From contig OZ246396.1 of NCBI GenBank assembly GCA_965230905.1, positions 270,001-302,000 on the forward strand: a stretch of DNA of 32,000 nt, written 5' to 3'. Both the position numbers and the translations under genes were made by a program. The notes under the pieces are model-generated. The model did not search any database and was not told where the DNA came from. It saw nothing but the letters and a program-made list of their open reading frames with translations. Numbering within the stretch: the first letter of the stretch is position 1; every line of letters starts with the position of its first letter. Source of the stretch: Candidatus Saccharimonadota bacterium. GTDB lineage: Bacteria > Patescibacteriota > Gracilibacteria > UBA1369 > 2-02-FULL-48-14. Below are positions 2,768 through 31,329 of the stretch, piece by piece.

Positions 2768-3796
2768 TTATCCCAAAAGCTCTTCAATGCGTCCACTCTC
2801 GATTGCCTGTTTGATTTCGCGGGCGAGACGGCGGCCGGTGGACATGGGTTCTTTGTAGCGGAGTGCGGTGTAGGGAGAGCCTTCAATATACGGGTTGGTT
2901 CCGGCCACGATTCGGGCGGAAATTTCGAATACGCGGAAGTTCAGATTGGGGTCGATGATTCCTTCCAAACAGAAGGGACCGTAGAGTCCTTTGGGCACTC
3001 CGGCCAGGTTGCGGGACGCTTTCACCACGTTTTCTCCAATCTCAAAGAACATCGGGAGCATGGATTCGCGAACCACAATGGGAATGTTCCCGGTGATGGT
3101 GTAGCTGGTGCGGATATTGGCTTCAATTTGGTCTTTGGCGGCGATGCGTCCGATGGAATCGGCGTTGGATTCGTAACGTTTGTCGAAGCTCATGATTTCG
3201 AGTTCGCCGGTGAGCGCGGAGTAGAAATAGTGCACGTACATGGGCACTCCCACCACGTATTCTTGGATGGCGTATTCGTTCTGGCCGGGAAATTCCTTGA
3301 TGCGTTCCGCGAATTCAGCGGGTGAATTGGCAATAAAATAGCCGAATCCACCTTTGGCGCCGTGGAATTTAATGATCACGGGGCGGTCGATTTCTTCGGG
3401 GTTTTTGAAAACTTTGGGCACGTTGAGACCGGCATTTTTGAGCCAGTCGCGTTCCATAGAACGGTCCGACTCCCACTTTAGAATGCCTTTTGAACCGTAG
3501 TACTTGGCGGCCATTTGCTGAATGATTCTGTCCACACCCACATAACTCACAAAGGAACCGTGCGGAATCACAATGGCGTTCTTGGCCTTCAGCTGGTCTT
3601 CAATAGTGAAATATTCTTCAAAGCTGGGGATTTCAATGAGCTCGTCTGCTACCGGAAAACTTTCAAAAACTCGCCGGGTCTGTGGCGTGACAATTGCAAT
3701 GGTTTTGAAGCCCTCATCTTTTGCACCCTTTAGGATCTGAAGAGCGGTGTGGCTCCCCAGCGTAGCGATGGCGTAATCTGTTATTGAGGCTGTCAT
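2768..3796 (-). CDS. purP: 5-formaminoimidazole-4-carboxamide-1-beta-D-ribofuranosyl 5'-monophosphate synthetase (archaeal-type PurP)
   Basis: IATLGSHTALQILKGAKDEGF, HGSFVSYVG, LKWESDRS, DRPVIIKFHGAKGGFGYFIA, YVHYFYS..TGELEIMSFDKRYESN, ITGNIPIVVRESMLP and FEISARIVAGTN closely follow the Methanocaldococcus PurP pattern as recalled. The ORF is open up to 3850. I place the start at ATG 3796 (MTASITDY...) because a TGCTAAGAT box sits 7 nt upstream and this removes the overlap with the upstream ORF. Confidence 0.88.
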   Translation of the reverse strand: MTASITDYAIATLGSHTALQILKGAKDEGFKTIAIVTPQTRRVFESFPVADELIEIPSFEEYFTIEDQLKAKNAIVIPHGSFVSYVGVDRIIQQMAAKYYGSKGILKWESDRSMERDWLKNAGLNVPKVFKNPEEIDRPVIIKFHGAKGGFGYFIANSPAEFAERIKEFPGQNEYAIQEYVVGVPMYVHYFYSALTGELEIMSFDKRYESNADSIGRIAAKDQIEANIRTSYTITGNIPIVVRESMLPMFFEIGENVVKASRNLAGVPKGLYGPFCLEGIIDPNLNFRVFEISARIVAGTNPYIEGSPYTALRYKEPMSTGRRLAREIKQAIESGRIEELLG

Positions 3797-3803
3797 TTGG
3801 ACT

Positions 3804-3812
3804 ATCTTAGCA
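3804..3812 (-). promoter_or_regulatory. Extended -10 box TGCTAAGAT, 7 nt upstream of purP ATG 3796 (leaderless-type spacing)
   Basis: The minus strand reads TGCTAAGAT-agtccaa-ATG. It belongs to the recurrent TGCTAnnnT family seen eight times in this window. Confidence 0.45.
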
Positions 3813-3837
3813 AAGCGGTTCTTTTTTGTCGACTGCT

Positions 3838-4827
3838 TTAATTTTGGCATTCCGTCTTTAGTCGAGCCCTGAACTGAATTAATCGGTCATTTACTTCCTG
3901 CTGTCCCCAGAGAGGCGCACCGGCGTAATCGTTTTCCTCATTGGCTTGCATCATTTTTTGAATTTTCTCTGTGCCGGCGAATGCGGCGTCCCAGTTTCCT
4001 GTTATATACGTTAACTCAGCATCGATTGCCTTCATTTGCTCCTGGCAGCTCTGCATTTGAGTTTTGTTATTTAAAATCGCTGGCAAAAGGCTGCAGCGAT
4101 AAAGTAGTTTTCTGTAGTGAACCAAGTAGGGAGCGTACTCATTAAAAAGTGGGCGCTTCTGCATGGTCCTTTGCATGGCTTGAAAAAGATTTAAGGCCTC
4201 GAGAGAATCTCCATTGAGGTCTTTGAAGGCAGCTAATCGCAGCAGTTCGGGAGGCAGCTCTTCATGAAACTTACATGACTCCATATCTGGAGTCTTGCCA
4301 TTCAAAAGACTTGTCCCGCTGCTTTTTCCCAAGTCATTTAAAGACTTTACGACTTTTCCATCGACCAATTCGGCTTCAAAGAAACCTAGGGATTCTCTTT
4401 TCTGAATGTGAGAATGAATGGTATAGGAATACGGAAATTTTTTTAACAAAATTTTGTCCATTTCATAAAGGAATCCTCTGTCGTTTGGGAAATCTATTTT
4501 TGCCAATAGCTCCATTGCACCTGTGCACAGCTCGGGATCTAAGTTAACTTTCCCGTTGAGCATTTCAATAAAGCAGCTGATTAAAACTTCACGGATTTGA
4601 AGTAACACTGCTTCCTCCTCAGACTGAAGACCGAGCATGAGCTCCATAGCCTTTAAAACAGCCCCAGGGTCTGCTTTAACTATTTTTTGTATCCGGACCA
4701 ATCTTTTAATTTTATCTTCACCACTTTCAGAAGTTTTGAATTTTTCGTGCTCGCGCAGCAGGCTTCCGTGAGGCACATGATCCTCAGCAATAAGTGTCTG
4801 TTCATCTGTTGTATCCAATAAGCTCAT
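3838..4827 (-). CDS. Hypothetical helical protein
   Basis: 329-aa ORF with no family signature I recognise. It is visibly more AT-rich than its neighbours and has a TGCTAAGCT box 7 nt upstream of its ATG. Confidence 0.6.
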   Translation of the reverse strand: MSLLDTTDEQTLIAEDHVPHGSLLREHEKFKTSESGEDKIKRLVRIQKIVKADPGAVLKAMELMLGLQSEEEAVLLQIREVLISCFIEMLNGKVNLDPELCTGAMELLAKIDFPNDRGFLYEMDKILLKKFPYSYTIHSHIQKRESLGFFEAELVDGKVVKSLNDLGKSSGTSLLNGKTPDMESCKFHEELPPELLRLAAFKDLNGDSLEALNLFQAMQRTMQKRPLFNEYAPYLVHYRKLLYRCSLLPAILNNKTQMQSCQEQMKAIDAELTYITGNWDAAFAGTEKIQKMMQANEENDYAGAPLWGQQEVNDRLIQFRARLKTECQN

Positions 4828-4848: not shown

Positions 4849-5586
4849 CTAAGCATTGATCCAGAGGAAAGCCAAAATACAGATTCCCAGCGCTATTCGG
4901 TAGACTCCAAAAGCCCGGAAACTGTGTTTTTTAAGAAATTTCATGATCACGGAAGCGGCGAAGAGACTGGAAAGAAAAGCGGCTAGAAATCCAACGATTA
5001 AAGTAGAAAGCGGTAAAGAAAGGGATTCGGTGTCGAGGGCTTTAAGGAAACCGGCTCCGGCAATGGCGATCGAGCCAAGCAAGAAAGAAAATCGCGCGGC
5101 TTCTTCCCTATTCACGCCCAGTTGCATTCCCGTAAAAATAGTCGCGCCACTGCGAGAAACTCCCGGAATAATGGCCAGTGCTTGTCCACAACCCATGAGC
5201 AAAGTACGCCACCACGTGAGCGGCTTATTGTTTTTTCGTTGAGGAATAAAAAAGAGCAATCCCACCACAATGAGCATCATCGCCACGGACTCGGCGCTGC
5301 GGAAGAGTTCATCGATGGTGTCTTCTAATAAAAATCCAACTAGCGCGGCGGGCACGGAGCCAAGAATCAGCCAAGGCCACCATTTAAAATTCAAAAGATC
5401 GCGGCGAAAATAAACCAAAATCGCCAGCAGGGTTCCCACGTGCAGGGTGATGTCGAAATCCTTTAAATCGTCCACACGCAGGCCCAATAAAGTCTCCGTG
5501 ATGATGAGATGCCCGGACGAAGAAATGGGCAGAAATTCGGTGATTCCTTGAACGAGACCGAGGATGATGGCTTGGAGAAGTGTCAT
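4849..5586 (-). CDS. uppP: Undecaprenyl-diphosphate phosphatase
   Basis: The N-terminus LLQAIILGLVQGITEFLPISSSGHLII and the later PGVSRSGATI motif are the UppP/BacA signatures. It is polytopic and 245 aa long. Confidence 0.93.
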   Translation of the reverse strand: MTLLQAIILGLVQGITEFLPISSSGHLIITETLLGLRVDDLKDFDITLHVGTLLAILVYFRRDLLNFKWWPWLILGSVPAALVGFLLEDTIDELFRSAESVAMMLIVVGLLFFIPQRKNNKPLTWWRTLLMGCGQALAIIPGVSRSGATIFTGMQLGVNREEAARFSFLLGSIAIAGAGFLKALDTESLSLPLSTLIVGFLAAFLSSLFAASVIMKFLKKHSFRAFGVYRIALGICILAFLWINA

Positions 5587-5598
5587 GTCCCGAATATC

Positions 5599-6132
5599 TT
5601 AAGCGCGGCGCCAGGCTTTCACAACATGAAGCAACGAGAAGACGCAGAAAAAGAGATTCAGCCAAAAGAAAATGGAGCTGTCTCCTAAGTAACTGTACGC
5701 CGAAATAAAGCCGCTCCCCACCGCCAGTGTAAGGTTCCTTTTCAGATTGTTTTTGAGGATGAAACCAATGGCAACCAGGGTGAGCCCAAGAATGAATAAA
5801 ATCGTCGTGCTGTCTTCAAAAAGAACAAGGGACCAGGCTAAAAATCCGGATCCAGCGAGGCCCACTCCAATCGAAGCCCAGCGGTCATTGGCGTTCAGCA
5901 GCATCAGCGCAGTGGAAATGAGGGTGAGGCTTTCGAAAAACACATAGAAGACCGGCTCACCCTGCAAGTACGAAAGCACCGCGTATAAAAAAACTAAAAT
6001 ATTTCCGATGGCGAAGAATTGGTTCTTGAGCGCCTTTGCGGGATGCTGTCCTTTTTTTGGATTTTTCCACGCTGCTCCTGCGAGCAAAAAGAGAGAGCCA
6101 ATGATGCCGGTTAAAAAAATGGGGTCCATCAT
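5599..6132 (-). CDS. Polytopic membrane protein with internal duplication, function unknown
   Basis: 177 aa and almost entirely hydrophobic. The two halves resemble each other (G..L.A.G...KN..K...N...A.G....Y..L.G...F). The start overlaps the upstream stop as ATGA (6129-6132). Confidence 0.7.
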   Translation of the reverse strand: MMDPIFLTGIIGSLFLLAGAAWKNPKKGQHPAKALKNQFFAIGNILVFLYAVLSYLQGEPVFYVFFESLTLISTALMLLNANDRWASIGVGLAGSGFLAWSLVLFEDSTTILFILGLTLVAIGFILKNNLKRNLTLAVGSGFISAYSYLGDSSIFFWLNLFFCVFSLLHVVKAWRRA

Positions 6133-6635
6133 TTTTTGCTCTTTTTAGAAGCCAATGTATAAGCCACTGCAAGCAAAATCACCACGAGTACGCCCGCTCC
6201 ATAGGCCCATTCGGGAAGCGTTTTGGTTTCCGTGAGCTGAGTGCCCTCTCCTAAATCTGCCGTGTTGGATTCCGCTAAAATGCCGGTGAGGCTGCAAGAA
6301 TACACGTGCAGTTCTCCATCCGTGAGGCTGGCGTAGACCATGTATTCCTCTCCTTCCTCAAAACCAAATCCACAGTCACCGCCTCCCATTCCCGTGTGCA
6401 CTTTTATGAGCGTGCCTTCCACTCCTTTCCACGCCTCAGTCACCTCCAAAGTCACGTCGTAGCCGTATTCATGAGAATCACTGATTTGCGTTACGATTCC
6501 GCTAAAAACCGCGTCTGATTTTTCCATTTCTTCGACGGGCGTTCCCGGAATCACGCAGCTGCAGGCGTAAACGGGCTGAGTCTGGGCCGTGAAAAGAGCC
6601 GCAAAAACAAATAGAGAGAGGAGAAGTTTCTTCAT
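6129..6635 (-). CDS. Secreted, C-terminally membrane-anchored TIMP/NTR-like protein (putative metalloprotease inhibitor fold)
   Basis: The signal peptide MKKLLLSLFVFAALFTAQTQPVYA is followed by CSCVIPGTPVEEMEKSDAVFSGIV, then GGDCGFGFEEGEEYMVYASLTDGELHVYSCSL. The C-terminus carries a TM helix plus KKSKK. Confidence 0.75.
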   Translation of the reverse strand: MKKLLLSLFVFAALFTAQTQPVYACSCVIPGTPVEEMEKSDAVFSGIVTQISDSHEYGYDVTLEVTEAWKGVEGTLIKVHTGMGGGDCGFGFEEGEEYMVYASLTDGELHVYSCSLTGILAESNTADLGEGTQLTETKTLPEWAYGAGVLVVILLAVAYTLASKKSKK

Positions 6636-6670: not shown

Positions 6671-8236
6671 TTAGTGTTTGAAACTGCGGATTCCCGTGCA
6701 CACCATGGTCATGCCGAGTTCGTCGGCTTTTTTAATAACTTCTTCGTCGCGGATAGAACCGCCCGGCTGGATGATGGCGTGAATGCCGGCGGCGTGCGCT
6801 TCTTCTACGGCGTCTGGGAAAGGGAAGAATGCATCAGAAGACATAACGGAACCTGGAACTCGGTCGCCGCCTTTACGGCTCGCAATGATCACGCTGTCCA
6901 CGCGGGACATTTGGCCGGCTCCGATTCCCGTGGCGCTGCATCCGCCAAAAGCGTTTTTCTTTGCGTAGACCACGGCGTTTGATTTCACGTGCTTCACAAG
7001 GATGCGTGCAAAGAGCATGGCTTCGATTTCGTCTTCGGTTGGCTGTTCCTTCGTCACCACTTTGAGGTCTTTTTCGGTCACCACGTATTGATCGGCGGTT
7101 TGCACCAAGATTCCCCCGGACACCGTTTTTATGCTGCGTTGATTTGGGTTGCGGCGGAGTTCACCGGTTTCCAGCAGGCGGAGATTTTGTTTTTTGCTGA
7201 GGAGTTCAAGCGCGCCGGCATCGAAAGACGGCGTGATGATGATTTCCACGAACATTTTGTTGTCCACGATGTACTGCGCGATCTCTTGAGTGCACGGACG
7301 GTTGAGCGCGATCACACATCCAAACGCAGCCATTGGGTCCACTTGATAAGCTTCTGTGAAAGCATCCGTAATAGTGTCAGCAGTTGCGGCACCACATGGG
7401 TTAGTATGTTTAATTACTGCGGCTGCAGGCTTGTCAAAATCTTTGACAAGTTCGAGGGCGCCGTCGGTGTCGATGATGTTATTGAAGGAGAGTTCCTTGC
7501 CTTGCAAAACCTTGGCGTTGGTTACGTTAGGAAACTGATCCGTGGGGTCGCGGAAGAAGACCGCTTTTTGGTGCGGATTTTCTCCGTAGCGAAGTTTCAT
7601 CACTTTTTCGTAGTGCAAGTCGAGAAGTTCCACGGGTTCACCTTTGTAGCGCAGGTATTCGGCAATCGCGTGGTCGTAGGCATTGGTTTTTTCAAAGACT
7701 TTTACAGCAAGCGCGCGACGTGTTTCCACGCTCACTCCCCCTTGATTGAGCTCTTCAATCACAATGGGATAATCTTTAATCGCAGTGAGCGCCGTCACAA
7801 ATTGGAAATTTTTTGCAGCGGAGCGGAGCATGGCTGGCCCACCTATGTCGATTTGTTCAATGGCTTCTTCTTCGGTGATTCCTTCTTTAGCCACGGTTTC
7901 GCTGAAGGGATAGAGATTGATGATCACCATGTCTATTGGCTTGATGCCGTTTTTGGCGGCCACTTCATCGTCTTCACCTCGGCGCATCAAAATTCCGCCG
8001 TGCACCAAGGGATGCAGGGTTTTCACACGTCCGCCCATCATTTCGGGAAAGCCCGTGTAATCAGAAACGTCGGTCACTTTAATGCCGGCTTCCTTGAGTG
8101 CTTTGGCGGTTCCGCCGGTCGATAAAATCTCCGCACCGTGCCGGATGAGTGCTTCGGCGAGAGGCAGCAGGTCCGTTTTATCGGACACACTGATCAGGGC
8201 GCGGGCAATCTTGCGGACTCCAGTGAGAGGATTCAT
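6671..8236 (-). CDS. purH: Bifunctional AICAR transformylase / IMP cyclohydrolase
   Basis: 521 aa. [19 protein letters not shown]...[14 protein letters not shown]...[29 protein letters not shown] and the C-terminal IQPGGSIRD are classic PurH motifs. Confidence 0.97.
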
Positions 8237-8330: not shown

Positions 8331-9299
8331 TTATTGGACAATGATTTCACCCGGATAGTCAGCAAGCAATTGATCAACTAATTCTTGATTGCCCTCTTCT
8401 ACTGCTGCTGCAAACTCATCAATATTATCTTCAACAAATTGATCGTATCGTTCCTTGGTCAAACCACACTGATCAATCAAGAATGAAAATTCCTGGCCCG
8501 GTGAATTGTAAATGTGAGTCATGGCGTTTCGTGCGCTATTTTCAGGATCTGAAATATCCTGCATAAAATAATCATAAGCGTCTTGAGGTGTTCTGATCCC
8601 CTCCTTGATCATGCGAATATAATTGTTGTATTTTTCCTTGTAATGTATTTCTCCCAAGATTCCATCGAATTCACCTCCATATCCTCCTCGCATCCTCTCA
8701 CCCGCTTGGTAAAGGTACTCGGTTAAATAGGCTGGATCGTGATTGTCCATAACTGCTGCCTCTTGTTCCTTCTGCGATTTTGCTTCTTTCACTTCTTCAG
8801 AGTGAACCGTGTCTTCAAGGTGATTTACTTCATGGGGTAAAAATCCCACCATGATAGGCCTTAGCTTCCAACCTGAGCTCACTGTTTCACTTGGATCCTC
8901 AGGTAGAACAATAAAGTCATCAAGCTGTCCCCAAGGGGCCCACCGACCACCATAAGCAGAGGCCCCTATTTCTTCACCATTCTCCTCTCCAGGATCCACC
9001 CCCTCAAAAAAATCGTCAAAACCCACTACAATTTTATCCCTATCGTAGTAATCCCACAATTGATCCAAATTACTTTGAAGATTTTCGGCTAAAATCTCAT
9101 TACTTTCAATAGATTCGCCCTTTAGATCAAAAAGCGTGTCTGTGTAACCCAATATAGGAATTATCGCTGATAATCTGTCTTGTTCTTCTCCGATTACTCC
9201 AGCAACATATGCATCTTCTGCCTCGGTGAGAGGTCTTGTACCCGGTAGTTGGCAAGCTGCGAGTGCTAATGGAAGTACTAAAGCTTGTTTTAAATTCAC
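8331..9299 (-). CDS. Lipoprotein with HExxHxxxxxH motif (putative zinc metallopeptidase-like), function unknown
   Basis: GTG start. Signal plus lipobox MNLKQALVLPLALAAC. HEVNHLEDTVH is encoded at 8802-8834 (verified by hand translation). More AT-rich than its neighbours. Confidence 0.7.
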   Translation of the reverse strand: MNLKQALVLPLALAACQLPGTRPLTEAEDAYVAGVIGEEQDRLSAIIPILGYTDTLFDLKGESIESNEILAENLQSNLDQLWDYYDRDKIVVGFDDFFEGVDPGEENGEEIGASAYGGRWAPWGQLDDFIVLPEDPSETVSSGWKLRPIMVGFLPHEVNHLEDTVHSEEVKEAKSQKEQEAAVMDNHDPAYLTEYLYQAGERMRGGYGGEFDGILGEIHYKEKYNNYIRMIKEGIRTPQDAYDYFMQDISDPENSARNAMTHIYNSPGQEFSFLIDQCGLTKERYDQFVEDNIDEFAAAVEEGNQELVDQLLADYPGEIIVQ

Positions 9300-9631: not shown

Positions 9632-10867
9632 TTACCATACTCCCATCACATTTGGAGAGATTTTGGTTCCACCGTATTCAATTTCGAAGTGTAAATGGAT
9701 TCCTGTAGCGCCATATACACGGCCTGTATTTCCCATTTTTCCAATGGCCTGACCTTGAGACACGGTGTCGCCCGTAGTCACATAAATGGCTTCCATGTGC
9801 GCATAGTGCGTGCGGTATCCGTTCCCGTGGTCGATCCAAATATTGGTTCCATATCCTCCGTCGTAGCTACCCGCCGAAGCGTACACGATGACTCCCGAAG
9901 CTGCCGCTAAGATATCCGGCTTGCTGCGGTCCGCTACATCGTACGCGTAATGTCCGCCACGATAACCCTGAGTGATGATTCCATTGGTGGGGCGAATCCA
10001 TCCTTCGGCGCTGGCCACCACGTCGTATTGAGTGACTTCTGGCAAGTATTGTCCACCCACGTAGCCATAGTTTTTGCTGCCCGTGGACGTGACGGGTGTT
10101 GCGGCGATGTAAACCACTTCCGGCTTTCCATCCACAATGAAGATTTCTTCACCTTCCACCAAATCGGTATCATCGACGATGGCGTTGAAGTCCTTGGTTT
10201 TATCCAGATTTCCCTTGTACTTGTCCATGAGCGCCACCAAGGTGCTGCCCGAAGGAACTTTTACATACACTCCATCTTTAGGCGGAATGCTGAGGACCTG
10301 GCCAACCTTGAGGTAATCGCTATTCCCAAGGGCGGCGTTGGAATAACGGAGGGAACTCACGGAAACTCCCCAGCGGTAGGCAATCATGGAAAGGGTTTCA
10401 CCGGATTTAACCTCGTGTTCGGCGCGTTCGCTGCGGTTTTGGTCGTAGGTACCCTCTCCTTCCAGCGGCATGTTTTTGATGATGTAACCTTCTTCATCGG
10501 TGATATATGACTCAGAAGTGTCCAAAGACAGGTACTCCTTCCCCACGTTTTCTCCCCCGGCATAAAAGGCGCTGCTGGTGTTTACAGAGGTGAGGACCAG
10601 CATAAAAATACTGAACATCACCATTTGTGTGTACAGACGCTTGGGCGCCGGCATGTGATCCAGAGGATGCATGAACTGCGACAGCCGTTTCCCAGAGGGC
10701 AACAGAAAGAAAAAGATCTTTCGAACGCCTCTCTTAAAGTGAAACCAAATTTGTCCCGGCAGAGTATGGTAGTGACCTTCAAAGAGCTTGCGGTGTCTCT
10801 CTTTTTTGGCCTCCACATTTAGCTTGCTCATCCGAGCCAGAATGCCATAAAAGCAATTTGTTTTCAA
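9632..10867 (-). CDS. LysM domain-containing M23 family metallopeptidase (murein endopeptidase-like)
   Basis: LysM: HEVKSGETLSMIAYRWGVSVSSLRYSNA...LKVGQVLSIP. M23: GHYAYDVAD...IDHGNGYRTHYAHM...GQAIGKMGNTG...G.HLHFEI. There is an N-terminal TM helix. Codon 10867 is TTG; the first ATG is at 10831 and may be the true start. Confidence 0.9.
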   Translation of the reverse strand: MKTNCFYGILARMSKLNVEAKKERHRKLFEGHYHTLPGQIWFHFKRGVRKIFFFLLPSGKRLSQFMHPLDHMPAPKRLYTQMVMFSIFMLVLTSVNTSSAFYAGGENVGKEYLSLDTSESYITDEEGYIIKNMPLEGEGTYDQNRSERAEHEVKSGETLSMIAYRWGVSVSSLRYSNAALGNSDYLKVGQVLSIPPKDGVYVKVPSGSTLVALMDKYKGNLDKTKDFNAIVDDTDLVEGEEIFIVDGKPEVVYIAATPVTSTGSKNYGYVGGQYLPEVTQYDVVASAEGWIRPTNGIITQGYRGGHYAYDVADRSKPDILAAASGVIVYASAGSYDGGYGTNIWIDHGNGYRTHYAHMEAIYVTTGDTVSQGQAIGKMGNTGRVYGATGIHLHFEIEYGGTKISPNVMGVW

Positions 10868-14785: not shown

Positions 14786-15343
14786 TTAAAGCGTCACGCA
14801 ATCCTCACCCGTGAGACAAGTGGATTCGTCGCTGGGTTCGCCGCGTTCTGGACAGAGGGCGGATTGGATGCAAGCACGGTCGCCGACGGAGTCGATTTGA
14901 CCCTGAATTTCGGCGCCGGTTTGGTTTCCGTAGGTGATGAGGATTTGGTCGAGATCGCTGAGTTCGTAGTCGTCGAAGTCGTGGTTTTCTTTGCCGTTCA
15001 CAAACATTTTTAGCGTGTTTTCGTCATTGGTGCAGTAGCTGACGCCGCCTTCCAAATTGAAACATTCTTCGGTGAATTTCATGCCCAGAGATTCAAAAAA
15101 ATCACCGAGCGTGATGGTGCTCATGTGCTTGTGGATGATTTCGCCGTCGCCGTCGTGGAGGTGGGTGAAATGGCTGAGCTTGTGCTCGGCCGTGGACATG
15201 TATTTATCCTGAGCAAAATCGTGGACTTCTCCGTTCAGGTAAACCTTAAAATCGGCGTGTTCGTGGACGTCACCCAAGAGCGGCTGAGGTTTTTCACAGG
15301 CGAAAAGTAAGAGGCTTAGGAGGCAGAGAACTTTAATTTTCAT
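14786..15343 (-). CDS. His/Cys-rich lipoprotein, function unknown
   Basis: Signal plus lipobox MKIKVLCLLSLLLFAC. His clusters HEHADF and HKLSHFTHLHDGDGEIIHKH. Cys-rich C-terminus. The start overlaps the upstream stop (15340-15343). Confidence 0.75.
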   Translation of the reverse strand: MKIKVLCLLSLLLFACEKPQPLLGDVHEHADFKVYLNGEVHDFAQDKYMSTAEHKLSHFTHLHDGDGEIIHKHMSTITLGDFFESLGMKFTEECFNLEGGVSYCTNDENTLKMFVNGKENHDFDDYELSDLDQILITYGNQTGAEIQGQIDSVGDRACIQSALCPERGEPSDESTCLTGEDCVTL

Positions 15344-17439
15344 CGGTACAAAAGTTTTACGTTGGTGTCGTTTTGGAGAGGGCCGGAAAGGATGTAATCC
15401 AGGCCTTCTTTCACGTCGGTGGCGAGGGGGTAGCCGGAGAGCATGGTGTCGCTGAGGGCGGTCACGGTTTTTTCGAACGTGATGGCTTTGAGGCCGGGTT
15501 GTTTAAAGAGGTCGAAATCGTATTCTTCAAAGTCGCCGTGGAAATTCCAGGGCAGCGCGAAGTGAATGGTGAAGCTTTCGGAAGTGCCGGGGGCTACGGT
15601 TTGGTCGACGTAATAATAAGACAAATCTTGGAGAGGATCGTAGTAGAATTGAACCTCGTCGCGCAGAACGCCTTCGGTTTCCAAAATCGTGGCGTTGGCG
15701 GGGATGTAGAGGCGGATTCCGCTGTGATTGTTTGCGTTGCCCAGCACTTGTTCGAGGCCAGGATTCCACGCGCTGAAGCCGTAAGAAGCCAGCGTGCTTT
15801 TCAGCCAGCTTTGCGTGGCCGCGTTGTAGGTGTGGGTGCGCTGCACGGTCACGGAAGAAACCATACTGCCGTCCTCAAAAATTTGGGTATCGTGTTGGAG
15901 GTGCGTTTCCATGTAACGATCGGTCTTGTTCGCGCCGATGTTGGTGAACACGGGCATGAAAAAGTCGTGATCGATTTCAGAAAGTGCGGGCAGATCGCCG
16001 GTGAGGCCCAGGGAGTCGAAGAGCTCTTGCACGGCCGGTTCGCGGTGGTAGAAAAGGATTTGTTTTTTGTGTGCTTCATCCATGGCGGTGAGTGCCACGG
16101 AAGTTTTGACGGTGGACGATTTCATTTGATCCATAAAAGCCGTGAGCAGTTCGCCGAGCACGGCTTTTGGACTGGTTTTATTCACCTTGGCTTCCACCAA
16201 AGTGCTGATCACGGCGGGAAAGGTTTCGGCAGAGATTTCTTTTTTAATGGAAGGCAATTTGAGGGGGCCGGTGTCTTCGAGCAGCGCTTGAGCGGCCGAG
16301 AGGTTGAGTCCAATCACACCATCCACGCCGGGGCCGCCTTCTTCTTGCAGCAGCCACATGGCTTTTTCGGCGGAAATGGGAAAGTCGGCGGAAATATTGC
16401 TGTCGCGCAGACGCCATTCGGGCGTGAGCGCCTTGAGTTCGTGCACCGGCACTTCGAGGTGTTCAAAGTAGCGGCCGTCGAAGTCGTAGACATCGTGAAA
16501 AGCGAGGTCCGCGAGCCGTCCGTCGTTCAGTTCCACAATCGCCACGCTTCCAATGAACCCGCCGCCTTGGCGCATTTCATCGTTGTTTTGCAAGAGCACC
16601 AAATAGTGTTGAGGGGTGTGGTCGCCGAGCGCGGTCAGCAGCGGTTCTTTGGCAGAAACCCAGAGGTCGAAAAAGGACGTGAGCGCGGAGAGTTTGTCTT
16701 TGAAAGAGAGGAATTTGCTTTCGAATTCGGTGCCGGATAAATCTACGTCCGCCAACAAGGCATCGATTTGATGAAGCTTCACGGCAACGGGCTCAAGCTG
16801 TTCTTCGGAGATTTTACGGAGGTAGTCCGTGAGGGAACCGGTTTCGGGCAGAGTGGAAAAGGCCAGGCGAGCCTCGCCAATGAATTGACCCACTTCCGCC
16901 ATCAGCGTGCCGGCGTCGAGCAGATTTTCCAGACTTTCCACCTGTTTAGGCTGCGAAAGCCACTCGGAATTTCCTTGCAATAAAAATGCGCCTTTTTCTT
17001 TGGCTTCTTCAAAGAGTTTTTCGGCTTCATCAAAGAGCACCAAGTCGGCGCCTTGTTCCCCAGAAATCACAGATTCGCTGGCGCCTTGCAAGGACATGAA
17101 GGCTTCGCCGGCCAACGCCAATGCCTCGGTGCCTTCTTTTTTTCCGAGGAAGAAAATTTGTCCAATGTTCAGCACAAAAATCACGAGCAGCGCGGCGGCC
17201 ACCATCGGCACACGACCCAGTCCGCGTCGGTGCGGCGGCAATTCCCCAATGATGCAAATGGCCCCGGGTTTCTGGTTTCGCGTTTTGATTTCTTCTTTTA
17301 AATCCACACTCACAGCCGCGTGGGCTTCCGTCTTTTTCCCGTTGTCCACTCCTTTCAAATTGATGACGTGCTTGGAAGGCTCCGGAAGTTCCGTCGCCTT
17401 ATGCAAATCTTCGGGACCGATATTCAGATTGGTGGTCAT
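15340..17439 (-). CDS. DUF4012 domain-containing membrane-anchored protein
   Basis: 699 aa with an N-terminal TM helix (VPMVAAALLVIFVLNIGQIFFL). YLVLLQNNDEMRQGGGFIGSVAIVELNDGRL is the hallmark DUF4012 motif. Confidence 0.8.
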   Translation of the reverse strand: MTTNLNIGPEDLHKATELPEPSKHVINLKGVDNGKKTEAHAAVSVDLKEEIKTRNQKPGAICIIGELPPHRRGLGRVPMVAAALLVIFVLNIGQIFFLGKKEGTEALALAGEAFMSLQGASESVISGEQGADLVLFDEAEKLFEEAKEKGAFLLQGNSEWLSQPKQVESLENLLDAGTLMAEVGQFIGEARLAFSTLPETGSLTDYLRKISEEQLEPVAVKLHQIDALLADVDLSGTEFESKFLSFKDKLSALTSFFDLWVSAKEPLLTALGDHTPQHYLVLLQNNDEMRQGGGFIGSVAIVELNDGRLADLAFHDVYDFDGRYFEHLEVPVHELKALTPEWRLRDSNISADFPISAEKAMWLLQEEGGPGVDGVIGLNLSAAQALLEDTGPLKLPSIKKEISAETFPAVISTLVEAKVNKTSPKAVLGELLTAFMDQMKSSTVKTSVALTAMDEAHKKQILFYHREPAVQELFDSLGLTGDLPALSEIDHDFFMPVFTNIGANKTDRYMETHLQHDTQIFEDGSMVSSVTVQRTHTYNAATQSWLKSTLASYGFSAWNPGLEQVLGNANNHSGIRLYIPANATILETEGVLRDEVQFYYDPLQDLSYYYVDQTVAPGTSESFTIHFALPWNFHGDFEEYDFDLFKQPGLKAITFEKTVTALSDTMLSGYPLATDVKEGLDYILSGPLQNDTNVKLLYR

Positions 17440-18902
17440 AGGCTTGGAAGCAGAGACGTGCGGGTGAAAACCCCGTCGTCAAAGATTTTTCGAGTGGACA
17501 TCAGACGCGTGAGAGTGGACAGATGTGTCTTCAGTATATTCGTTTCCGGTAAAAATGCACCATCTAAAATCCAGATTTCCGTTGACCCGGGCAGGAGCAC
17601 GGACATTTCCTCTAAATTGCGTTGGCGGTCCAGTGCGGCGAGTAAGGCGGCTTCGTCGGGCGCCACAATCACGGCGTCTTCCGTGAAGACGAGGGCAGCC
17701 ACGGTTTGATCGCCGGCCATCAGGAGGGTTGTGCCATTGCTGGTGACTTCGGTGAGCTGCAAGAGTTCCGCTTTTTGTTCGCCTCTTTCGGCGGTGTAGA
17801 TTTCTTTGTAGGTGAAGGTTTGGATGAAGCGGTTCTTGAGCGTTTCTGCACTTTGACCGTCTTCCACGGTTTCGAGTTCAAGAATGAAAAGGAAATCGTC
17901 CGCGCTCGTCCAACCAAAATACGATTCGCCGTCGAGGAGCGGGAGCAGTTCGGGCAAGGTCGTGGGGCCAAAGAGGTCCGTTGCCGCGGACTGGAGGCTC
18001 GAGGTGAAAATCATTTCGCCGGTGCTGCCGAGTTCCGTGAAAATTTCCTGCATGCGGGTGAGCTGAGCGGCGAGGTCTTGGGTGCCAAATTCCCATGCGA
18101 AGGACTTGGTCCAGGGCAGGAATTGCTGTTCGTATTTTTCGGCGGGATGGAAGTAGGCGCCGCGGATGAGCTCTTTGTTCACGGCCGTGAAACTTTCGGC
18201 GTACCACCCCGTGCTTTCCATGCGGATGCTGGCGCCCCAAGCCGGGAAAATTTGCAGAATCGATTCGGTGAAAGTTTGTGGCAGGCCGAGCTGAGCCGCC
18301 CAGGCGCTGAGTTCTTGCTGGGTTTCGCCCAAGTTCACAAAGGCCAGACCGCTTTGCAGGTGCCCGAGCCGGCCGCGCACGTTTTGGTAGTGAGGATTGT
18401 CTTCGAGACGAGGCGTGTGGCCTCCGAGAGTGGCGAGGGCTTCTGGGGAACTGGAAAACGCCGCCATGCCGCCAATGAAACGGAAACAAAAGGCTTCAAT
18501 TTCGTAGCAGCGAATGTTTTCATTCAAGTCGTTCACTTTTATTTCCCCGCCTTCCACCAAGGTCGTGAAAAAAGTTTCTGCTTCGTCGCGCGAACCCATT
18601 TCCAAAAACTCCACCGTGTTTCCATCTATCCAGGCCACCGCGAGGTCGCGTTTGAACCACGTGAGCTCCGCTAGGGGCGTACCCAAGAATTCTTTAAAAT
18701 ACGCGGAGTCCACGGGCGAGCCGCTGGCCGCAAAATCCTCCATGTTCACAACAAAAAATGCCTCCGCACCTTCGGGCAAAAGTTCAGCCACATTGCTGAG
18801 TCCGCCCAAACGAAAAGTTAGCGTGAAGAGCAGAAATCCCAGTAAAAGAACCGTCGGTACCAAGATGAGTCCTTCGCCAAGCCACTCTTTAAATCGGTTC
18901 AT
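17436..18902 (-). CDS. Membrane-anchored hypothetical protein (possibly DUF3352-like)
   Basis: 488 aa with an N-terminal TM helix (LILVPTVLLLGFLLFTLTF). There is a 4-nt overlap with the downstream DUF4012 gene. The family call is tentative. Confidence 0.65.
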   Translation of the reverse strand: MNRFKEWLGEGLILVPTVLLLGFLLFTLTFRLGGLSNVAELLPEGAEAFFVVNMEDFAASGSPVDSAYFKEFLGTPLAELTWFKRDLAVAWIDGNTVEFLEMGSRDEAETFFTTLVEGGEIKVNDLNENIRCYEIEAFCFRFIGGMAAFSSSPEALATLGGHTPRLEDNPHYQNVRGRLGHLQSGLAFVNLGETQQELSAWAAQLGLPQTFTESILQIFPAWGASIRMESTGWYAESFTAVNKELIRGAYFHPAEKYEQQFLPWTKSFAWEFGTQDLAAQLTRMQEIFTELGSTGEMIFTSSLQSAATDLFGPTTLPELLPLLDGESYFGWTSADDFLFILELETVEDGQSAETLKNRFIQTFTYKEIYTAERGEQKAELLQLTEVTSNGTTLLMAGDQTVAALVFTEDAVIVAPDEAALLAALDRQRNLEEMSVLLPGSTEIWILDGAFLPETNILKTHLSTLTRLMSTRKIFDDGVFTRTSLLPSL

Positions 18903-21147: not shown

Positions 21148-22209
21148 CTACAGTGCCTTAAAGAAGTCCACTAATTTTGTATTCATGTAATAATTGGTAT
21201 TTTTGTGTTTTTCTAGTTTTAACAAACCTAAGCCAGCGAGTTTTTTAAGATACTTTGAAGCTGTCAGCCTGCTTACACCTAAGTTTTTAGCTAAGATGTC
21301 TATTTTTGTATATGGATGAGAGAAAATGGTATTCATTAACTCATGAGAATACATTTTTGGAGCTTTTTCTCTAAGTATTTTTTTGTACTCTGACATTAGA
21401 GACTTGATGCTTTCAATTGTTGATATACTTCGTCGTGCAGTGACTTCTAAGGCCTCTAACATATATAATATCCATTCCTCCCAAGCACCTTCGTCGCGAA
21501 CTTTTTGTAGTAGATTATAATATTCAGATTTATTTTCTGTTATATATCGGCTCAAATATAGAATTGGTATGTTTAAAATATTTTCTGAAATCAGATATAA
21601 TATATTTAGTATCCTTCCAGTTCTGCCGTTTCCGTCAAAAAATGGATGAATGGATTCAAATTGGTGATGAATGATGGCCATTTTAACCAAAGGATCAAAA
21701 TCACTTGTTTTACTGTCATTTATAAACTTTTCCAGATCTTTCATCTGTTCATTAATATCCGAAATGTTTTGAGGCGGTGTATAGACGATATTTCCATGCT
21801 CGTCCTTTAGACTTGTTCCTGGAATGGTCCTAAACCCAGAATCTCTTTTAGTTATAATTTGAACAATTTCAATCAGCAGGCCATTTACGAGGGGTCTTGT
21901 TTCAAGTGCCCTATAGCCATGATACAAGGCATCATTGTAGCGATAGACCTCTTTTGTTGCTGGAGTAAATAGGTCGTTCTGTTTGTCATATTTGAAGAGC
22001 TCATCATGTGTAGTCACAATATTTTCTATTTCAGAGCTGTCTTTTGACTCTTGGAGCGCCAACGTGTTGATCAAGATACCTTGATTTGGGATCGTATCCG
22101 CCACTCCTTTCAATTCAGCAATAACTTTGTTTGCAGATATCGCTTTTTTGAGAATTTTTGACGTCTCAACTACACCCTCTGGAGGTAGTTTTGGGATGGT
22201 ATATGTCAT
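21148..22209 (-). CDS. Fic family protein (AMPylase-type), class II with N-terminal inhibitory helix and C-terminal winged HTH
   Basis: Fic motif HPFFDGNGRTGR at 21613-21648 (hand-translated). Inhibitory-type motif SSEIEN, fitting (S/T)xxxE(G/N), at aa 58-63. C-terminal ILAKNLGVSRLTASKYLKKLAGLGLL. Strongly AT-rich. Confidence 0.92.
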   Translation of the reverse strand: MTYTIPKLPPEGVVETSKILKKAISANKVIAELKGVADTIPNQGILINTLALQESKDSSEIENIVTTHDELFKYDKQNDLFTPATKEVYRYNDALYHGYRALETRPLVNGLLIEIVQIITKRDSGFRTIPGTSLKDEHGNIVYTPPQNISDINEQMKDLEKFINDSKTSDFDPLVKMAIIHHQFESIHPFFDGNGRTGRILNILYLISENILNIPILYLSRYITENKSEYYNLLQKVRDEGAWEEWILYMLEALEVTARRSISTIESIKSLMSEYKKILREKAPKMYSHELMNTIFSHPYTKIDILAKNLGVSRLTASKYLKKLAGLGLLKLEKHKNTNYYMNTKLVDFFKAL

Positions 22210-22372
22210 GGTTTCTATAGTGTATAGGCTTTGGCTTTATTCTATCACTAAAAATTATCTATGTAAAGTTTTTCCAATTTCTTATACATAGCTTTGCGGC
22301 TGTGTATATACGCTATGCATGTCATTAAACAGTGGACGTGAGCTTCGTGTTCTACGCGAGCTACATCGTGAC

Positions 22373-22945
22373 TCAAGTTATCTGAGACGCGACTAAAAGG
22401 CTGTCGTAAATATCTACTTTGTCTTGTAGAAACTTTTCACGAGCCGCTTGATAGCTAGCTTCGAGGCCACTCTCGGCGTAGTTGAGTTCGACTTTTGATT
22501 CTGGTTGCACTACCTCAATGGTGTGCTCGTTCTTCATGTAGGATTTGACCTCCTTCCGAAGTAAATCGGGATAAAAGGTGTGAATCAAATCAGCGTCACT
22601 GAGGATAGCGATTGCACAGGTCATAGCGTTAGAGCTTCTCAGATTTAGCTTCTCTACAAGCTGCAAGGCTAGGACTGATGCGGGTTTATTGAGTGGAATA
22701 CGATCTATGTTTTTTACTGAGTGGAAAAGATCCATAAAGGGATAGAAGGTGTCTTGTTGAGTTCTCTCAAGACCCCAGATGATGTGGTCAATCCAAGATA
22801 TTTCATTGAAAGAAACGACTCCCACAATTTCATAGCCTGGCTTGGTAGAAATGCTTATTTGTGAGTTCTTACAGGCAATTCGAATTTCTTCCGAACGAAG
22901 GCAAAATTGTCCGAGGTGGATGCTGGCGTCAAAAACTATTTTCAT
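22373..22945 (-). CDS. Hypothetical protein (weak PIN-like features)
   Basis: 190 aa. N-terminal KIVFDAS and later AMTCAIAILSDADLIHT are reminiscent of PIN acidic positions, but this is not convincing. AT-rich. TATAAT at 22957-22962 (minus strand) lies 11 nt upstream of the ATG. Confidence 0.55.
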   Translation of the reverse strand: MKIVFDASIHLGQFCLRSEEIRIACKNSQISISTKPGYEIVGVVSFNEISWIDHIIWGLERTQQDTFYPFMDLFHSVKNIDRIPLNKPASVLALQLVEKLNLRSSNAMTCAIAILSDADLIHTFYPDLLRKEVKSYMKNEHTIEVVQPESKVELNYAESGLEASYQAAREKFLQDKVDIYDSLLVASQIT

Positions 22946-28698: not shown

Positions 28699-31329
28699 CT
28701 AGGGATACAGAAGTTTTAAGTGATCTTCTGTGAGTTCAGTCTTCACTTTGCCTAGGGTTTCTTTAAGGGATTCATAGGATTCGGATGCATCTGGTGACAT
28801 TTTTTTGAGTTGATCTGGAGCAAAACCCGTATCCAACTTTCTTTCTAACAAGGTTGCTCGGTCAGCTACCTCTTTTAAACTAGGTTTTACATTTCTATCC
28901 ACACCAAGCATGGATACCAATTGTTTTTTAGCTTCTTTGATTTTGACAGGGTCTGTAAGCCCGGTGATTGAAAGCGGATTTCTCATGTAATTAAATTCTG
29001 AATACAGAGCGCTTACTTCAAGTTTTGCTAAAAAGTTTATTTTTTTATTGGGATCATTCAACTTACCTACTAAGGTTCCAAAGTTCTTATAAGGGTTGTC
29101 TCTATCGAAGATGGCCTCCAACCGTTCCTGCGTTAAACAATCCTCAATAGCTTTTAAATCTTTACCCAATGCATCGAACCGAGCCTTGTCTTCAAGTTCC
29201 GCGAAGTCCGTTTTCTTCACTTTTCCCAGCGCTCTCCTAAACTCTACCAAAGCTGTAGCGAGCATAGCATGGGTGACCCGAGCTACGTTCATGCCCACAA
29301 ATTTCGCCAACTGAGTTTTGGCCAGCGTGAGCTCTTCAGCAGATCCACCTTTAATGAGTGCGTCCAATTCTCCGGCATCCACCAAGTAAGGGAAATGCCC
29401 TCGGAAGGTAGAGGATTTGTAGCCACGTACATAGCCAGCCACGTCGGACACTTCTTCCAAGTCACGGAAGTCATTTACAAACTGTTCTGGTGCAACTGGA
29501 GTGACATCCGCAAACAAGGCTTCCACTGATTTATCATCCGAGAAATCTCCTGCGACTATCGCACTAGCACCACCTATTGCCGCTACACCAGGTTGAGTTA
29601 AGAGATTCAACATCTTTCTCAACTTGCCAAGATTTGCCATTTCTTTTACCGAAGGCACCGGTGGAGGTGTGCCTGCTCCAATGAATATTTTCTCCATTGC
29701 TGCGGCTTCCCTCAAAATATCCGCGCGTTCAAAAGGTTCTTCCAATTTAAACAAAGCCTTCAATTGATTTCTAACTTTCTTTCTACCCTCCGTAGTTTTG
29801 AGTAAAGCGGGCTTAACTGCAGGGTAAAGGATATTGAATGCACGCTTGAGCTTGTCTTCATCAAAGCCCTCCAAAGCATTCTTTCGGTTTTCCTTATTCA
29901 CGCCGTCCAAAACACTAGTTCCAAAATTTCTGTATTTTTCGTCTGTCCACGCAAAGCTGCTGCCTTCCACTTCGGCAGTGGGGTAGAGCTTGTTCAGAAT
30001 ATCTGGAGTTAAGTTGGTCTGTGCTTTTTCGAGCAAGTCGATGAACTCCTTTCGGATTGCAGTGTAAGGATCGATCGGAGCGGGGGCTGCTGCAGGAGGC
30101 ACTATGACCCACCCCAACTTTTTTTTCATTTCGCGCTCGCGTTCCAAAAGTTTGGCTTTTGTGGGTTTCTTTACATTGAACAGATTTTCAATTTGTTCAC
30201 GTAAATCATCCGGATTCATGGTGAGCTCTGCTGCTAGACTAGCAGAATCTAAAATGTCACCCACCTGAATCTCAATATCATCGATTCCGTCTGTCTTGAT
30301 TTGATTCAAGAAAGGCTTCAAGGTCTTATTAGGGTTGACCTTCAATATACTATCTCCGATCTTAGAGTAATTCATTGCGTAATCATCCACTTTTTCAGCC
30401 GTGCCATAAATTTTTTCAACCGCATCTTTAGTGAGCCAGGTTCTAACATTCTTAATGATGTCGATGAGTGCTTCGTGTTGATTTTCCACCCGTGGATCCA
30501 AGTCGTGTACATCGAAAGTTTCCACTCCATGATGCGAATGGATGTGAACTCCTAAGAGGGTCAAGAGCATGGTGGTTTGCTTTTCTACAATCTGTCGGTC
30601 CGCTACTCCGCTCCAATCCAAAATATTAGAGGTTTGTTTCTTGAGTTCTTCACGTCCACTTTCACTGTTAAGGGATTTCTTAAAACGGGCCTCATCGGTG
30701 AACATGTAGAGCGCCCTTTCCACATTATCAATATCCAATCCCGCACAGAATCCTTCGAGAGCATGGTGATCGAGGGCGATTTCCTTTTTCTTCGCTGCTT
30801 TCTTATCCTTTTTCAGTTTATGCAAAATTTGGTCTCCAATGTGTTGGTCGTCGGTTGCAATAGGGTGGAGGCTTGGAAAGAGTTTTCCTTTAACCCACTC
30901 GGCGGCTTTTGCTATGCCCCCTAATGCGGGAACCGCGTGACCATAGTGAGCCAAGGCGTGGATTCCTTTATCAAAAAGGTCGCCGTCGTGGTCGTCGTGA
31001 CCCGCAATGGCGGCCGCTGCACCGGCTGCCGTGGCAACCGCTGAAGCAATAGGATGTCCGTGGGAGTCTACCGCAGGCGCGGCGTGTCTAGCAGCAGCGG
31101 CGGGAGCTGGATGGTGGTGAGGATCTACAGGAGGATGACCGCCATTTGCGGCTGGATGTGCAAATGTTTCTTTACCGGCAACATAAGTAACTCCTTTCAC
31201 CAAACGTGCAAACGATTCAGCAATACCCATCACCCCTCCATTCTTGAAGTGCATACTGTTGTTTGCAGCATTAGGAGCTTCGTGGCCTCCATCGTGATGT
31301 TCCGCTGATTGTGCAGGTGCTGATGACAT
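28699..31329 (-). CDS. Large hypothetical protein: His/Ala/Pro-rich N-terminus followed by tandem modules of about 135-145 aa
   Basis: 876 aa with no signal peptide. N-terminal region: HHDGGHEAP, HPPVDPHHHPAPAAAARHAAPAVDSHGHP, GHDDHDGD. Module starts LTKDAVEKIYGTAE (aa 299), LTPDILNKLYPTAE (440), LTQERLEAIFDRDNPY (732) and terminal LTEDHLKLLYP (866). Confidence 0.75.
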   Translation of the reverse strand: MSSAPAQSAEHHDGGHEAPNAANNSMHFKNGGVMGIAESFARLVKGVTYVAGKETFAHPAANGGHPPVDPHHHPAPAAAARHAAPAVDSHGHPIASAVATAAGAAAAIAGHDDHDGDLFDKGIHALAHYGHAVPALGGIAKAAEWVKGKLFPSLHPIATDDQHIGDQILHKLKKDKKAAKKKEIALDHHALEGFCAGLDIDNVERALYMFTDEARFKKSLNSESGREELKKQTSNILDWSGVADRQIVEKQTTMLLTLLGVHIHSHHGVETFDVHDLDPRVENQHEALIDIIKNVRTWLTKDAVEKIYGTAEKVDDYAMNYSKIGDSILKVNPNKTLKPFLNQIKTDGIDDIEIQVGDILDSASLAAELTMNPDDLREQIENLFNVKKPTKAKLLEREREMKKKLGWVIVPPAAAPAPIDPYTAIRKEFIDLLEKAQTNLTPDILNKLYPTAEVEGSSFAWTDEKYRNFGTSVLDGVNKENRKNALEGFDEDKLKRAFNILYPAVKPALLKTTEGRKKVRNQLKALFKLEEPFERADILREAAAMEKIFIGAGTPPPVPSVKEMANLGKLRKMLNLLTQPGVAAIGGASAIVAGDFSDDKSVEALFADVTPVAPEQFVNDFRDLEEVSDVAGYVRGYKSSTFRGHFPYLVDAGELDALIKGGSAEELTLAKTQLAKFVGMNVARVTHAMLATALVEFRRALGKVKKTDFAELEDKARFDALGKDLKAIEDCLTQERLEAIFDRDNPYKNFGTLVGKLNDPNKKINFLAKLEVSALYSEFNYMRNPLSITGLTDPVKIKEAKKQLVSMLGVDRNVKPSLKEVADRATLLERKLDTGFAPDQLKKMSPDASESYESLKETLGKVKTELTEDHLKLLYP

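Follow-up and report, generated by a model that had tools for sequence, protein, structure and literature searches.

The window analysed here is a 32,000-nt stretch of the genome of a Candidatus Saccharimonadota bacterium (GenBank assembly GCA_965230905.1, contig OZ246396.1, positions 270,001 to 302,000), and the gene in question encodes a small membrane-anchored protein related to tissue inhibitors of metalloproteinases (TIMPs). Its open reading frame (ORF) is tightly packed within a co-directional gene array. As had been noted from the letters alone, it overlaps the gene of a protein with seven transmembrane helices (7-TM protein) and lies upstream of uppP (Table 1). The exact NCBI entry, MEK9159925.1, is labelled “hypothetical protein” of a Patescibacteria group bacterium, and the nearest relative in the species-level genome collection comes from a candidate Peribacteria metagenome-assembled genome (“Candidatus Peribacteria”, 66% identity). 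An earlier sequence-only reading had described the product as a bacterial protein mimicking the N-terminal inhibitory domain of animal TIMPs. Mimicry is not the right term: significant profile matches and fold matches agree with each other and make the protein very probably a homologue of the TIMP/NTR family of oligonucleotide/oligosaccharide-binding folds (OB-folds).

Table 1. Features of the TIMP-like gene and its surroundings (positions counted from the first letter of the window).
Feature	Position	Strand	Basis
TIMP-like (NTR-fold) membrane-anchored protein gene, 168 aa	6129..6635	-	ORF and translation, relatives, profile and fold searches
Signal peptide, residues 1-24 (MKKLLLSLFVFAALFTAQTQPVYA)	6564..6635	-	predicted signal peptidase I (SPase I) site between VYA and C
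Cys25-Ser26-Cys27, predicted mature N-terminus; aligns to TIMP Cys1-Ser/Thr2-Cys3	6555..6563	-	PDB alignments, family junction
Mature OB-fold/NTR domain, residues 25-130	6246..6563	-	AlphaFold pLDDT, Foldseek
GGGDCG (residues 84-89) inside the family signature TG-M-GGGDCGF	6369..6386	-	alignments
Cys114, invariant; aligns to TIMP-1 Cys99 / TIMP-2 Cys101	6294..6296	-	alignments
C-terminal transmembrane anchor (residues 144-163) and cytoplasmic basic tail KKSKK (164-168)	6132..6206	-	sequence, AlphaFold
7-helix membrane protein, 177 aa, lineage-restricted, translationally coupled	5599..6132	-	conserved overlap, fusion, AlphaFold, hhalign
uppP/BacA undecaprenyl-diphosphatase	4849..5586	-	12 nt downstream of the 7-TM gene; conserved gene order only
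Orphan lipoprotein, lipobox LAAC, motif HEVNHLEDTVH	8331-9299	-	sequence

Similarity to TIMPs becomes clearer from the single protein to the family. Searched alone, the protein matches the Pfam TIMP family (PF00965) below the gathering score (18.0 versus 23.1 bits, E 0.0027) and no other Pfam family even at E<=10, the NTR (PF01759) and NtA (PF03146) models included, while phmmer against the PDB set (177,635 sequences) places TIMP-1 first with a weak E of 0.14. A profile from an alignment of 27 homologues (A1) brings TIMP-2 and TIMP-3 into all of the top five PDB positions (best E 0.0011), and with a profile of 128 diverse family members (A5) the top 15 matches are all TIMP-1, -2 or -3, led by TIMP-2 (E 7.8e-7, 31.9 bits), with no NTR protein other than TIMPs among the PDB sequence matches of this profile. 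These profile alignments run from TIMP residue 1 to Cys101. Throughout the PDB alignments the N-terminal Cys-Ser-Cys falls on TIMP Cys1-X-Cys3, the Cys of DCG on Cys70/72 and the last Cys on Cys99/101, and further motifs are common to both sides (DAVF/DLVI, WKG/YKG, T-x6-CG[FY], EY[LM]V/EFLI). Pfam TIMP is matched at E<0.01 by 12 of 28 close relatives and at E<=8e-5, roughly the gathering score, by 21 of the 128 wider relatives (~16%, best 1.8e-10), none of which matches any other Pfam family; two close homologues carry a precomputed PF00965 match. The proposed Pfam check leaves the protein itself below threshold and succeeds for part of its family. Judged by these sequence matches, the protein is nearest to the TIMPs within the NTR superfamily.

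The predicted structure leads to the same superfamily. An AlphaFold2 model built on A1 reaches a mean confidence (pLDDT) of 81, with block means mostly above 90 over residues 31-130 and an average of 72 for the block 81-90. The top 29 Foldseek matches in the PDB are all TIMP-1/2/3, agrin NtA, PCOLCE NTR, meteorin NTR or complement C3 C345C domains, headed by a TIMP-1 structure (E 2.1e-5), and superposition on the N-terminal domain of TIMP-1 (chain 3ma2_C) gives a TM-score of 0.67 normalised to that domain, with a root-mean-square deviation of 2.7 Å over 102 columns. The BFVD library of viral structures returned generic OB-folds only, none at E<=1e-3. A chance or convergent resemblance, or a spurious ORF, could appeal to the sub-threshold Pfam score and the poor single-sequence E-value, yet this explanation is effectively refuted by the relatives, the size of the family, and the Foldseek and A5 results: the protein is conserved in dozens of close and thousands of distant relatives, its cysteines and motifs stand in register with TIMPs, the fold agrees independently, and the gene is tightly packed among co-directional neighbours and keeps its coupling to the next gene. 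It should nevertheless be filed as a TIMP-like (NTR-superfamily) homologue and not as a TIMP, because the Pfam gathering score is not reached and both the third N-domain disulfide (Cys13-Cys124) and the C-terminal domain, which in TIMPs holds three more disulfides, are absent, though the fold, the N-terminal Cys-X-Cys and the profile homology are all present.

The N-terminus of the mature protein deserves particular attention. In TIMPs, the first cysteine follows the cleavage site without a spacer and builds, together with residue 2, the zinc-chelating N-terminus. The leader of the TIMP-like protein is of the Sec type (MKK, a 12-residue hydrophobic core, polar TAQTQPVYA), and V22-Y23-A24 before C25, with Pro at -4, is its sole AxA-type and only plausible SPase I site. 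The cleavage call is rule-based, from the AxA pattern and family statistics, and would leave Cys as residue 1, in line with the sequence-only reading. This junction is conserved across the family: among the 171 best representatives, 168 carry CxC within the first 80 residues (median position 27), and of those 168, Ala stands at -1 in 159 (95%), A/V/T/S/G at -3 in 162 and Leu at -3 once, while -2 is mostly Y/F/S/Q/H and the residue between the two cysteines is Ser in 151 (90%). We considered and rejected a lipoprotein reading of Cys25, since a lipobox would not normally have a residue as bulky as Tyr at -2 and the family statistics at -3 and -2 are contrary to it; the V-Y-A before Cys25 does not fit the pattern [LVI][ASTVI][GAS]C with a Leu-type -3.

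Cysteines are confined to residues 25, 27, 88 and 114, which correspond to mature positions 1, 3, 64 and 90, and the earlier counts of exactly four Cys and of a missing third N-domain disulfide agree with the sequence of the ORF. Beyond residue 130 there is only a linker, a hydrophobic stretch of 20 residues and KKSKK; residues 142-167 are helical in the model, which bears out the C-terminal transmembrane helix, and the anchor with its positive-inside tail fits an outward-facing domain. Instead of anchoring the protein permanently, this segment could serve as a sorting signal, given a sub-threshold NCBIfam GG_III-CTERM match (E 0.024, 14.5 versus 22 bits) and one Mesobacillus homologue that NCBI names an LPXTG-anchor protein. 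An LPXTG motif is not present in the TIMP-like protein, which has LPEWA instead, and the sequence before the anchor varies among close homologues. Genetic code 25 (UGA = Gly), raised by the Gracilibacteria labels of relatives, was also rejected: read-through would add just GWTPFF before a TAA, under table 11 the window has long ORFs with little space between them, and KKSKK is also the end of close homologues (e.g. P0002). TGA is the stop of 7 of the 27 table-11 ORFs in the window, a count that is partly a product of the ORF definition.

Far from being a rarity, the protein belongs to a family of ~24,000 clusters at 50% identity. An exhaustive HMMER search with A1 of 1.84 billion cluster representatives yielded 23,897 matches at E<=1e-3, of which 12,221 reach E<=1e-10 and 807 reach E<=1e-30. 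Animal TIMPs reach just ~22-32 bits against the family profiles and, with E-values rescaled to the size of this library, would fail E<=1e-3, so these counts should be essentially all of the prokaryotic type. According to source names and a genome scan by motif, members occur in Bacillota (Bacillaceae, Planococcaceae, Paenibacillaceae), Acidobacteriota, Gemmatimonadota (Longimicrobium), Pseudomonadota (Pseudoxanthomonas, Rhodanobacteraceae), Planctomycetota, Chloroflexota, Patescibacteria (Peribacteria, Saccharibacteria) and Archaea (Methanosarcinales, Woesearchaeota), and the exact motif TG[MLQ]GGGDCG was found in 263 species genomes in a scan with alignment A2. NCBI labels the family proteins hypothetical, while one from Lederbergia is auto-named “Tissue inhibitor of metalloproteinase” in UniRef; the TIMP resemblance is thus already tagged for a minority of members by automatic annotation (Pfam, UniRef) and not wholly new to databases.

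Within this family the window protein is a typical member, as exactly four mature Cys are found in 112 and a C-terminal hydrophobic anchor in 119 of 143 short members. The most conserved family positions include C25, S26, C27, T81, the GGGDCG loop and C114, with the four Cys invariant or nearly so, and they align with the reactive-ridge segments of TIMPs (residues 1-4, the 63-70 connector and Cys99); the remaining conserved positions lie mostly in predicted beta-strands. Cys88 aligns to TIMP-1 Cys70 and TIMP-2 Cys72, and the GGGDCG loop to the C-D “connector”, part of the TIMP inhibitory ridge. Longer architectures exist as well. P0028, P0033, P0035, P0044 and P0053 have 460-1213 aa and 3-4 separate matches to the TIMP-like profile each; in P0028 and P0033, the latter named Chloroflexota/Caldilineae by its sources, the first repeat opens with CSC after a signal peptide and internal repeats carry CPRC or CPPC. 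Some other members are fused to CarboxypepD_reg domains.

The reading we favour, with a probability of about 0.5, is that of a Sec-exported, C-terminally anchored, single-domain homologue of the TIMP N-terminal domain that would act by a zinc-peptidase wedge mechanism. SPase I would cut after Ala24 and thereby present Cys25 as residue 1 with a free alpha-amino group. Two predicted disulfides, Cys25-Cys88 and Cys27-Cys114, a scheme we propose because the four cysteines are homologous and in register with those of TIMPs, would staple the CSCV segment to the GGGDCG loop and to the loop around Cys114; the spacing fits the TIMP pairs, as the sequence-only reading had anticipated. The stapled segments might then form a wedge-shaped ridge like that of TIMPs, inserted into a metalloprotease cleft, where Cys1, through its amine and carbonyl, would chelate the catalytic zinc of an extracytoplasmic peptidase and Ser2 (Ser26) would sit at the S1' pocket. 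The transmembrane helix would keep the domain on the outside of the cytoplasmic membrane, beside its co-translated 7-TM partner, and the domain could protect this partner or the envelope against a metallopeptidase, be it the cell's own or a foreign one. That the protein actually inhibits a metallopeptidase we rate a little short of even odds.

The Peribacteria-type gene order M23/LysM peptidase - yidD - (variable lipoprotein) - purH - TIMP-like gene - 7-TM gene - uppP is kept in loci L001, L003 and L010 and partly in L007. In the window, the slot of the variable lipoprotein holds an orphan whose HEVNHLEDTVH has the metzincin spacing HExxHxxxxxH, but with Asp at the expected Gly. This neighbour had been put forward as a protein to be inhibited, and we rejected it as a conserved partner: nothing in Pfam, NCBIfam or the PDB matches it, tblastn against 89 loci, syntenic ones included, gave nothing significant (best E 0.11), and the same slot in related genomes holds an unrelated protein (L003) or nothing. 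For a wider view, ORFs were called and clustered all-against-all in 80 diverse loci from named genomes, where neighbours include ABC transporters, two-component systems, extracytoplasmic function (ECF) sigma factors, catalase, UvrC, radical-SAM and spore-coat-like proteins. A tblastn search with the TIMP-like protein found no match in 50,697 phage records and none in the plasmid collection.

Several loci show arrangements worth recording in their own right. A small gene and a PIN-domain gene, probably a toxin-antitoxin pair, lie between purH and the TIMP-like gene in L001 (7355-7978) and L009 (570-1193), and L001 carries an SLH-domain protein there too. In Mesobacillus (L002, 765-5246) a two-component system and an ABC/FtsX transporter adjoin the TIMP-like gene. 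Sigma-factor-like genes (cluster 3) occur within three genes of it in five loci (L019, L020, L034, L044 and L058), and an ABC-2 ATPase with its permease lies directly upstream in three (L023, L055 and L082). Such envelope-stress-type modules beside the gene in some Bacillaceae may be a weak lead, or only sub-clade synteny.

A number of observations count against the inhibitory mechanism. No neighbour, metalloproteases included, recurs beyond sub-clade synteny in the 80 loci, and HExxH proteins are not enriched near the gene in this set (4 of 259 within two genes versus 5 of 684 further away); recognisable metallopeptidase-type motifs are found in two of the four near ones, single-locus proteins of 595 and 638 aa. 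The M23/LysM protein is the sole metallopeptidase among the Pfam-annotated ORFs of the window, and TIMPs are not known to inhibit this class. The internal CPxC repeats of P0028 and P0033 cannot expose a free N-terminus, so the domain can also work where Cys1 chemistry is not available. Of the NTR modules in eukaryotes, most are not known to be inhibitors. To these are added the sub-gathering Pfam score and the missing third disulfide and C-terminal domain described above.

The one conserved partner of the TIMP-like gene is the 7-TM gene, which is absent outside the Peribacteria clade. As proposed from the sequence, the two are coupled through ATGA, the TGA stop of the first overlapping the ATG of the second; other gene callers choose the next ATG of the 7-TM gene, which leaves a 1-nt TGATG overlap. 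The 4-nt overlap is kept in L001, L003 and L010 at 57-66% protein identity. Only seven homologues of the 7-TM protein are detectable in total, all in the Peribacteria-type lineage, and it has no Pfam or NCBIfam family and no PDB fold match for its AlphaFold model, which shows seven helices (pLDDT 80). Helices TM1-3 and TM5-7 are related (hhalign of the halves, E 8.5e-6, a value that composition bias may inflate), and this 3+1+3 layout is reminiscent of small transporters, which is suggestive only. The protein also has conserved intramembrane Glu67 and Glu106 and an FFWLN motif.

On one metagenome contig of the Joint Genome Institute (L009) the two proteins are joined. P0032 is a 297-aa in-frame fusion that consists of the TIMP-like domain in residues 1-121 (65% identity with P0014) and the 7-TM protein in residues 132-297 (81% identity with the L001 partner), with about ten residues standing in for linker, anchor and basic tail; the 134-nt DNA gap at this point is of the length class needed to put two overlapping frames in register. 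A Lys-rich loop comes after the first helix of the 7-TM protein, which should place the N-terminus of this protein outside, and the fusion is topologically sensible. Although a single observation, the fusion argues that the TIMP-like domain works beside the extracytoplasmic face of its partner.

These observations also feed the main rival explanation, which we consider less probable: a non-inhibitory NTR-type binding module. The OB-fold ectodomain would then be a subunit of the 7-TM protein that binds a ligand or partner, and CxC would just staple the fold; the 7-TM protein could, for example, be a small transporter or receptor close to the lipid-carrier enzyme UppP, with the ectodomain as its accessory or substrate-capturing part. 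Coupling to the 7-TM protein as the only conserved neighbour, the direct fusion on one contig and the transporter-like internal repeat of the partner would all suit such a role, as would the CarboxypepD_reg fusions and tandem internal repeats without a free N-terminus elsewhere in the family, the want of a protease partner in the 80 loci, and the strong fold matches to agrin NtA, PCOLCE NTR and C345C, which are binding modules. Against this, the 7-TM partner is clade-specific, with its seven homologues, and other loci differ, which leaves the family as a whole unexplained; stapling a fold does not obviously need Cys1 without a spacer (95%) or Ser2 (90%); and by sequence the family is closest to TIMPs, with no other NTR protein in the PDB sequence matches.

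An improbable third possibility is an extracytoplasmic thiol or metal protein, in which CxC, the Cys of DCG, Cys114 and Asp87 would bind Cu or Zn or form a redox-active thiol-disulfide centre. The four near-invariant Cys and the highly conserved Asp beside Cys88 in a Gly-rich loop invite this idea, and the loop is more conserved than its equivalent appears in the aligned TIMP sequences. The four Cys, however, match two structural TIMP disulfides one-to-one, the location is extracytoplasmic and oxidising, and no metallochaperone or thioredoxin-like similarity was found in Pfam, NCBIfam or the PDB.

A Pfam scan covered 26 of the other large ORFs in the window; 7 gave no match and the others serve housekeeping or the cell envelope, among them two PurP-like genes, mutL, alaS, a Fic protein, a MiaB-like radical-SAM enzyme, murG and ftsW; the M23/LysM peptidase gene lies at 9632-10867. 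The PurP-like genes are tandem paralogues of the archaeal type (DUF1246 + DUF1297, FAICAR synthetase family; 1646-2758 and 2768-3850, both on the reverse strand) in the same co-directional array as purH (6671-8236), an unusual purine arrangement for a reduced-genome bacterium. Reverse-strand ORFs at 28699-31329 (876 aa) and 17436-18902 (488 aa) have no Pfam match, that at 3838-4827 (329 aa) has no family, and that at 15340-17439 (699 aa) carries DUF4012; the DUF4012 protein and a 489-aa neighbour recur in the syntenic locus L003, at its upstream end. A Fic/DOC adenylyltransferase-like gene (Fic_N, Fic, SoFic-like_C) adjoins a DUF6190 gene at 21148-22945 on the reverse strand, and the pair may be a toxin-type module.

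A prokaryotic family with the hallmarks of the TIMP N-domain challenges the published view of where animal TIMPs come from. A 2023 phylogenomic study concluded that TIMPs first arose in the ancestor of the eumetazoans (PMC10755359), and the authors of the work on Tim of Listeria stated that no bacterial TIMP-like proteins were on record (PMC8235301). In the literature on bacterial TIMPs we found this Listeria paper alone and no description of a prokaryotic TIMP-like family. The hallmarks (Cys1 at the junction, Ser/Thr2, the two ridge Cys pairs and the OB-fold) occur here in a family far more diverse than the animal one. Homology and family size are solid and would surprise the TIMP field, while function is an inference. 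In a broader conjecture, which we hold tentatively and with the odds against it, TIMP-type inhibitors would not be an animal invention: prokaryote-wide, tethered single-domain proteins would block extracellular metallopeptidases by the Cys1 wedge, metazoan TIMP/NTR domains would descend from them, and the Peribacteria domain would have been recruited as ectodomain subunit of a 7-TM protein. If zinc-peptidase inhibition proved true, these proteins would be a new and widespread class of bacterial cell-surface protease defence and minimal two-disulfide scaffolds for inhibitor engineering, and ideas on where TIMP/NTR modules came from could be tested directly; if they are not inhibitors, the family shows the role of the ancestral NTR fold before its recruitment by animals.

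Among known systems, the bacterial one most readily compared is Listeria monocytogenes Tim (LMRG_00714), a lipoprotein and partner of the metzincin Mtz whose likeness to TIMP is confined to the predicted structure. Its gene never occurs without a metzincin gene beside it and is associated with prophages, and the reported relation of Tim to Mtz is that of a cleaved protein, not of a demonstrated inhibitor (PMC8235301). Tim has been studied functionally, which contradicts the earlier statement that no bacterial TIMP-like protein had been characterised in this way (PMC8235301). Both proteins are bacterial and membrane-associated with a predicted TIMP-like fold, and Tim is linked to cell-envelope effects. 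Unlike Tim, the family of the window protein has TIMP homology at the sequence level, an SPase I site, a C-terminal anchor, no protease neighbour and no phage match, and the two are different families. The serralysin inhibitors of Pseudomonas (APRin) and Erwinia (Inh; MEROPS I38) are bacterial extracytoplasmic beta-barrels that block a zinc endopeptidase, their N-terminal residues entering its cleft and contacting the zinc; in mechanism they are a bacterial precedent for zinc contact by an N-terminus. In contrast to the TIMP-like protein, they are eight-stranded barrels of unrelated fold, soluble in the periplasm and encoded beside their protease.

NTR modules (netrin C-terminal, PCOLCE, sFRP, complement C345C) and agrin NtA share the OB-fold superfamily with the TIMP-like protein (Foldseek E ~4e-4 to 1e-2) and are internal binding modules, as are the multi-repeat and fused prokaryotic members. 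They differ from the TIMP-like protein in that they are normally internal, without a free N-terminal Cys, and have other Cys patterns, and no sequence-level match to them was found in Pfam or with the A5 profile in the PDB. The closest likeness is to the N-domain of metazoan TIMPs (MEROPS I35, PF00965; human TIMP-1/-2/-3), with which the protein has in common a five-stranded OB-fold with flanking helices, a signal peptide cut, here predicted, directly before Cys1, the Cys-Ser/Thr-Cys start and, according to the alignment, cysteines in register with those of the pairs 1-70 and 3-99. TIMPs and the prokaryotic family further share DxV(F/I), (W/Y/F)KG, T-x6-CG(F/Y), EY(L/M)(V/I) and the C-terminal helix region. 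The TIMP-like protein departs from TIMPs in having only two predicted Cys pairs, without the 13-124 pair and without a C-terminal domain, a Gly-rich GGGDCG loop where TIMPs have the AMESV/PSSAV segment, a C-terminal transmembrane anchor, a prokaryotic host and translational coupling to a 7-TM protein. What appears to be new here is thus a membrane-anchored prokaryotic TIMP homologue with two predicted disulfides and, in this lineage, a 7-TM partner.

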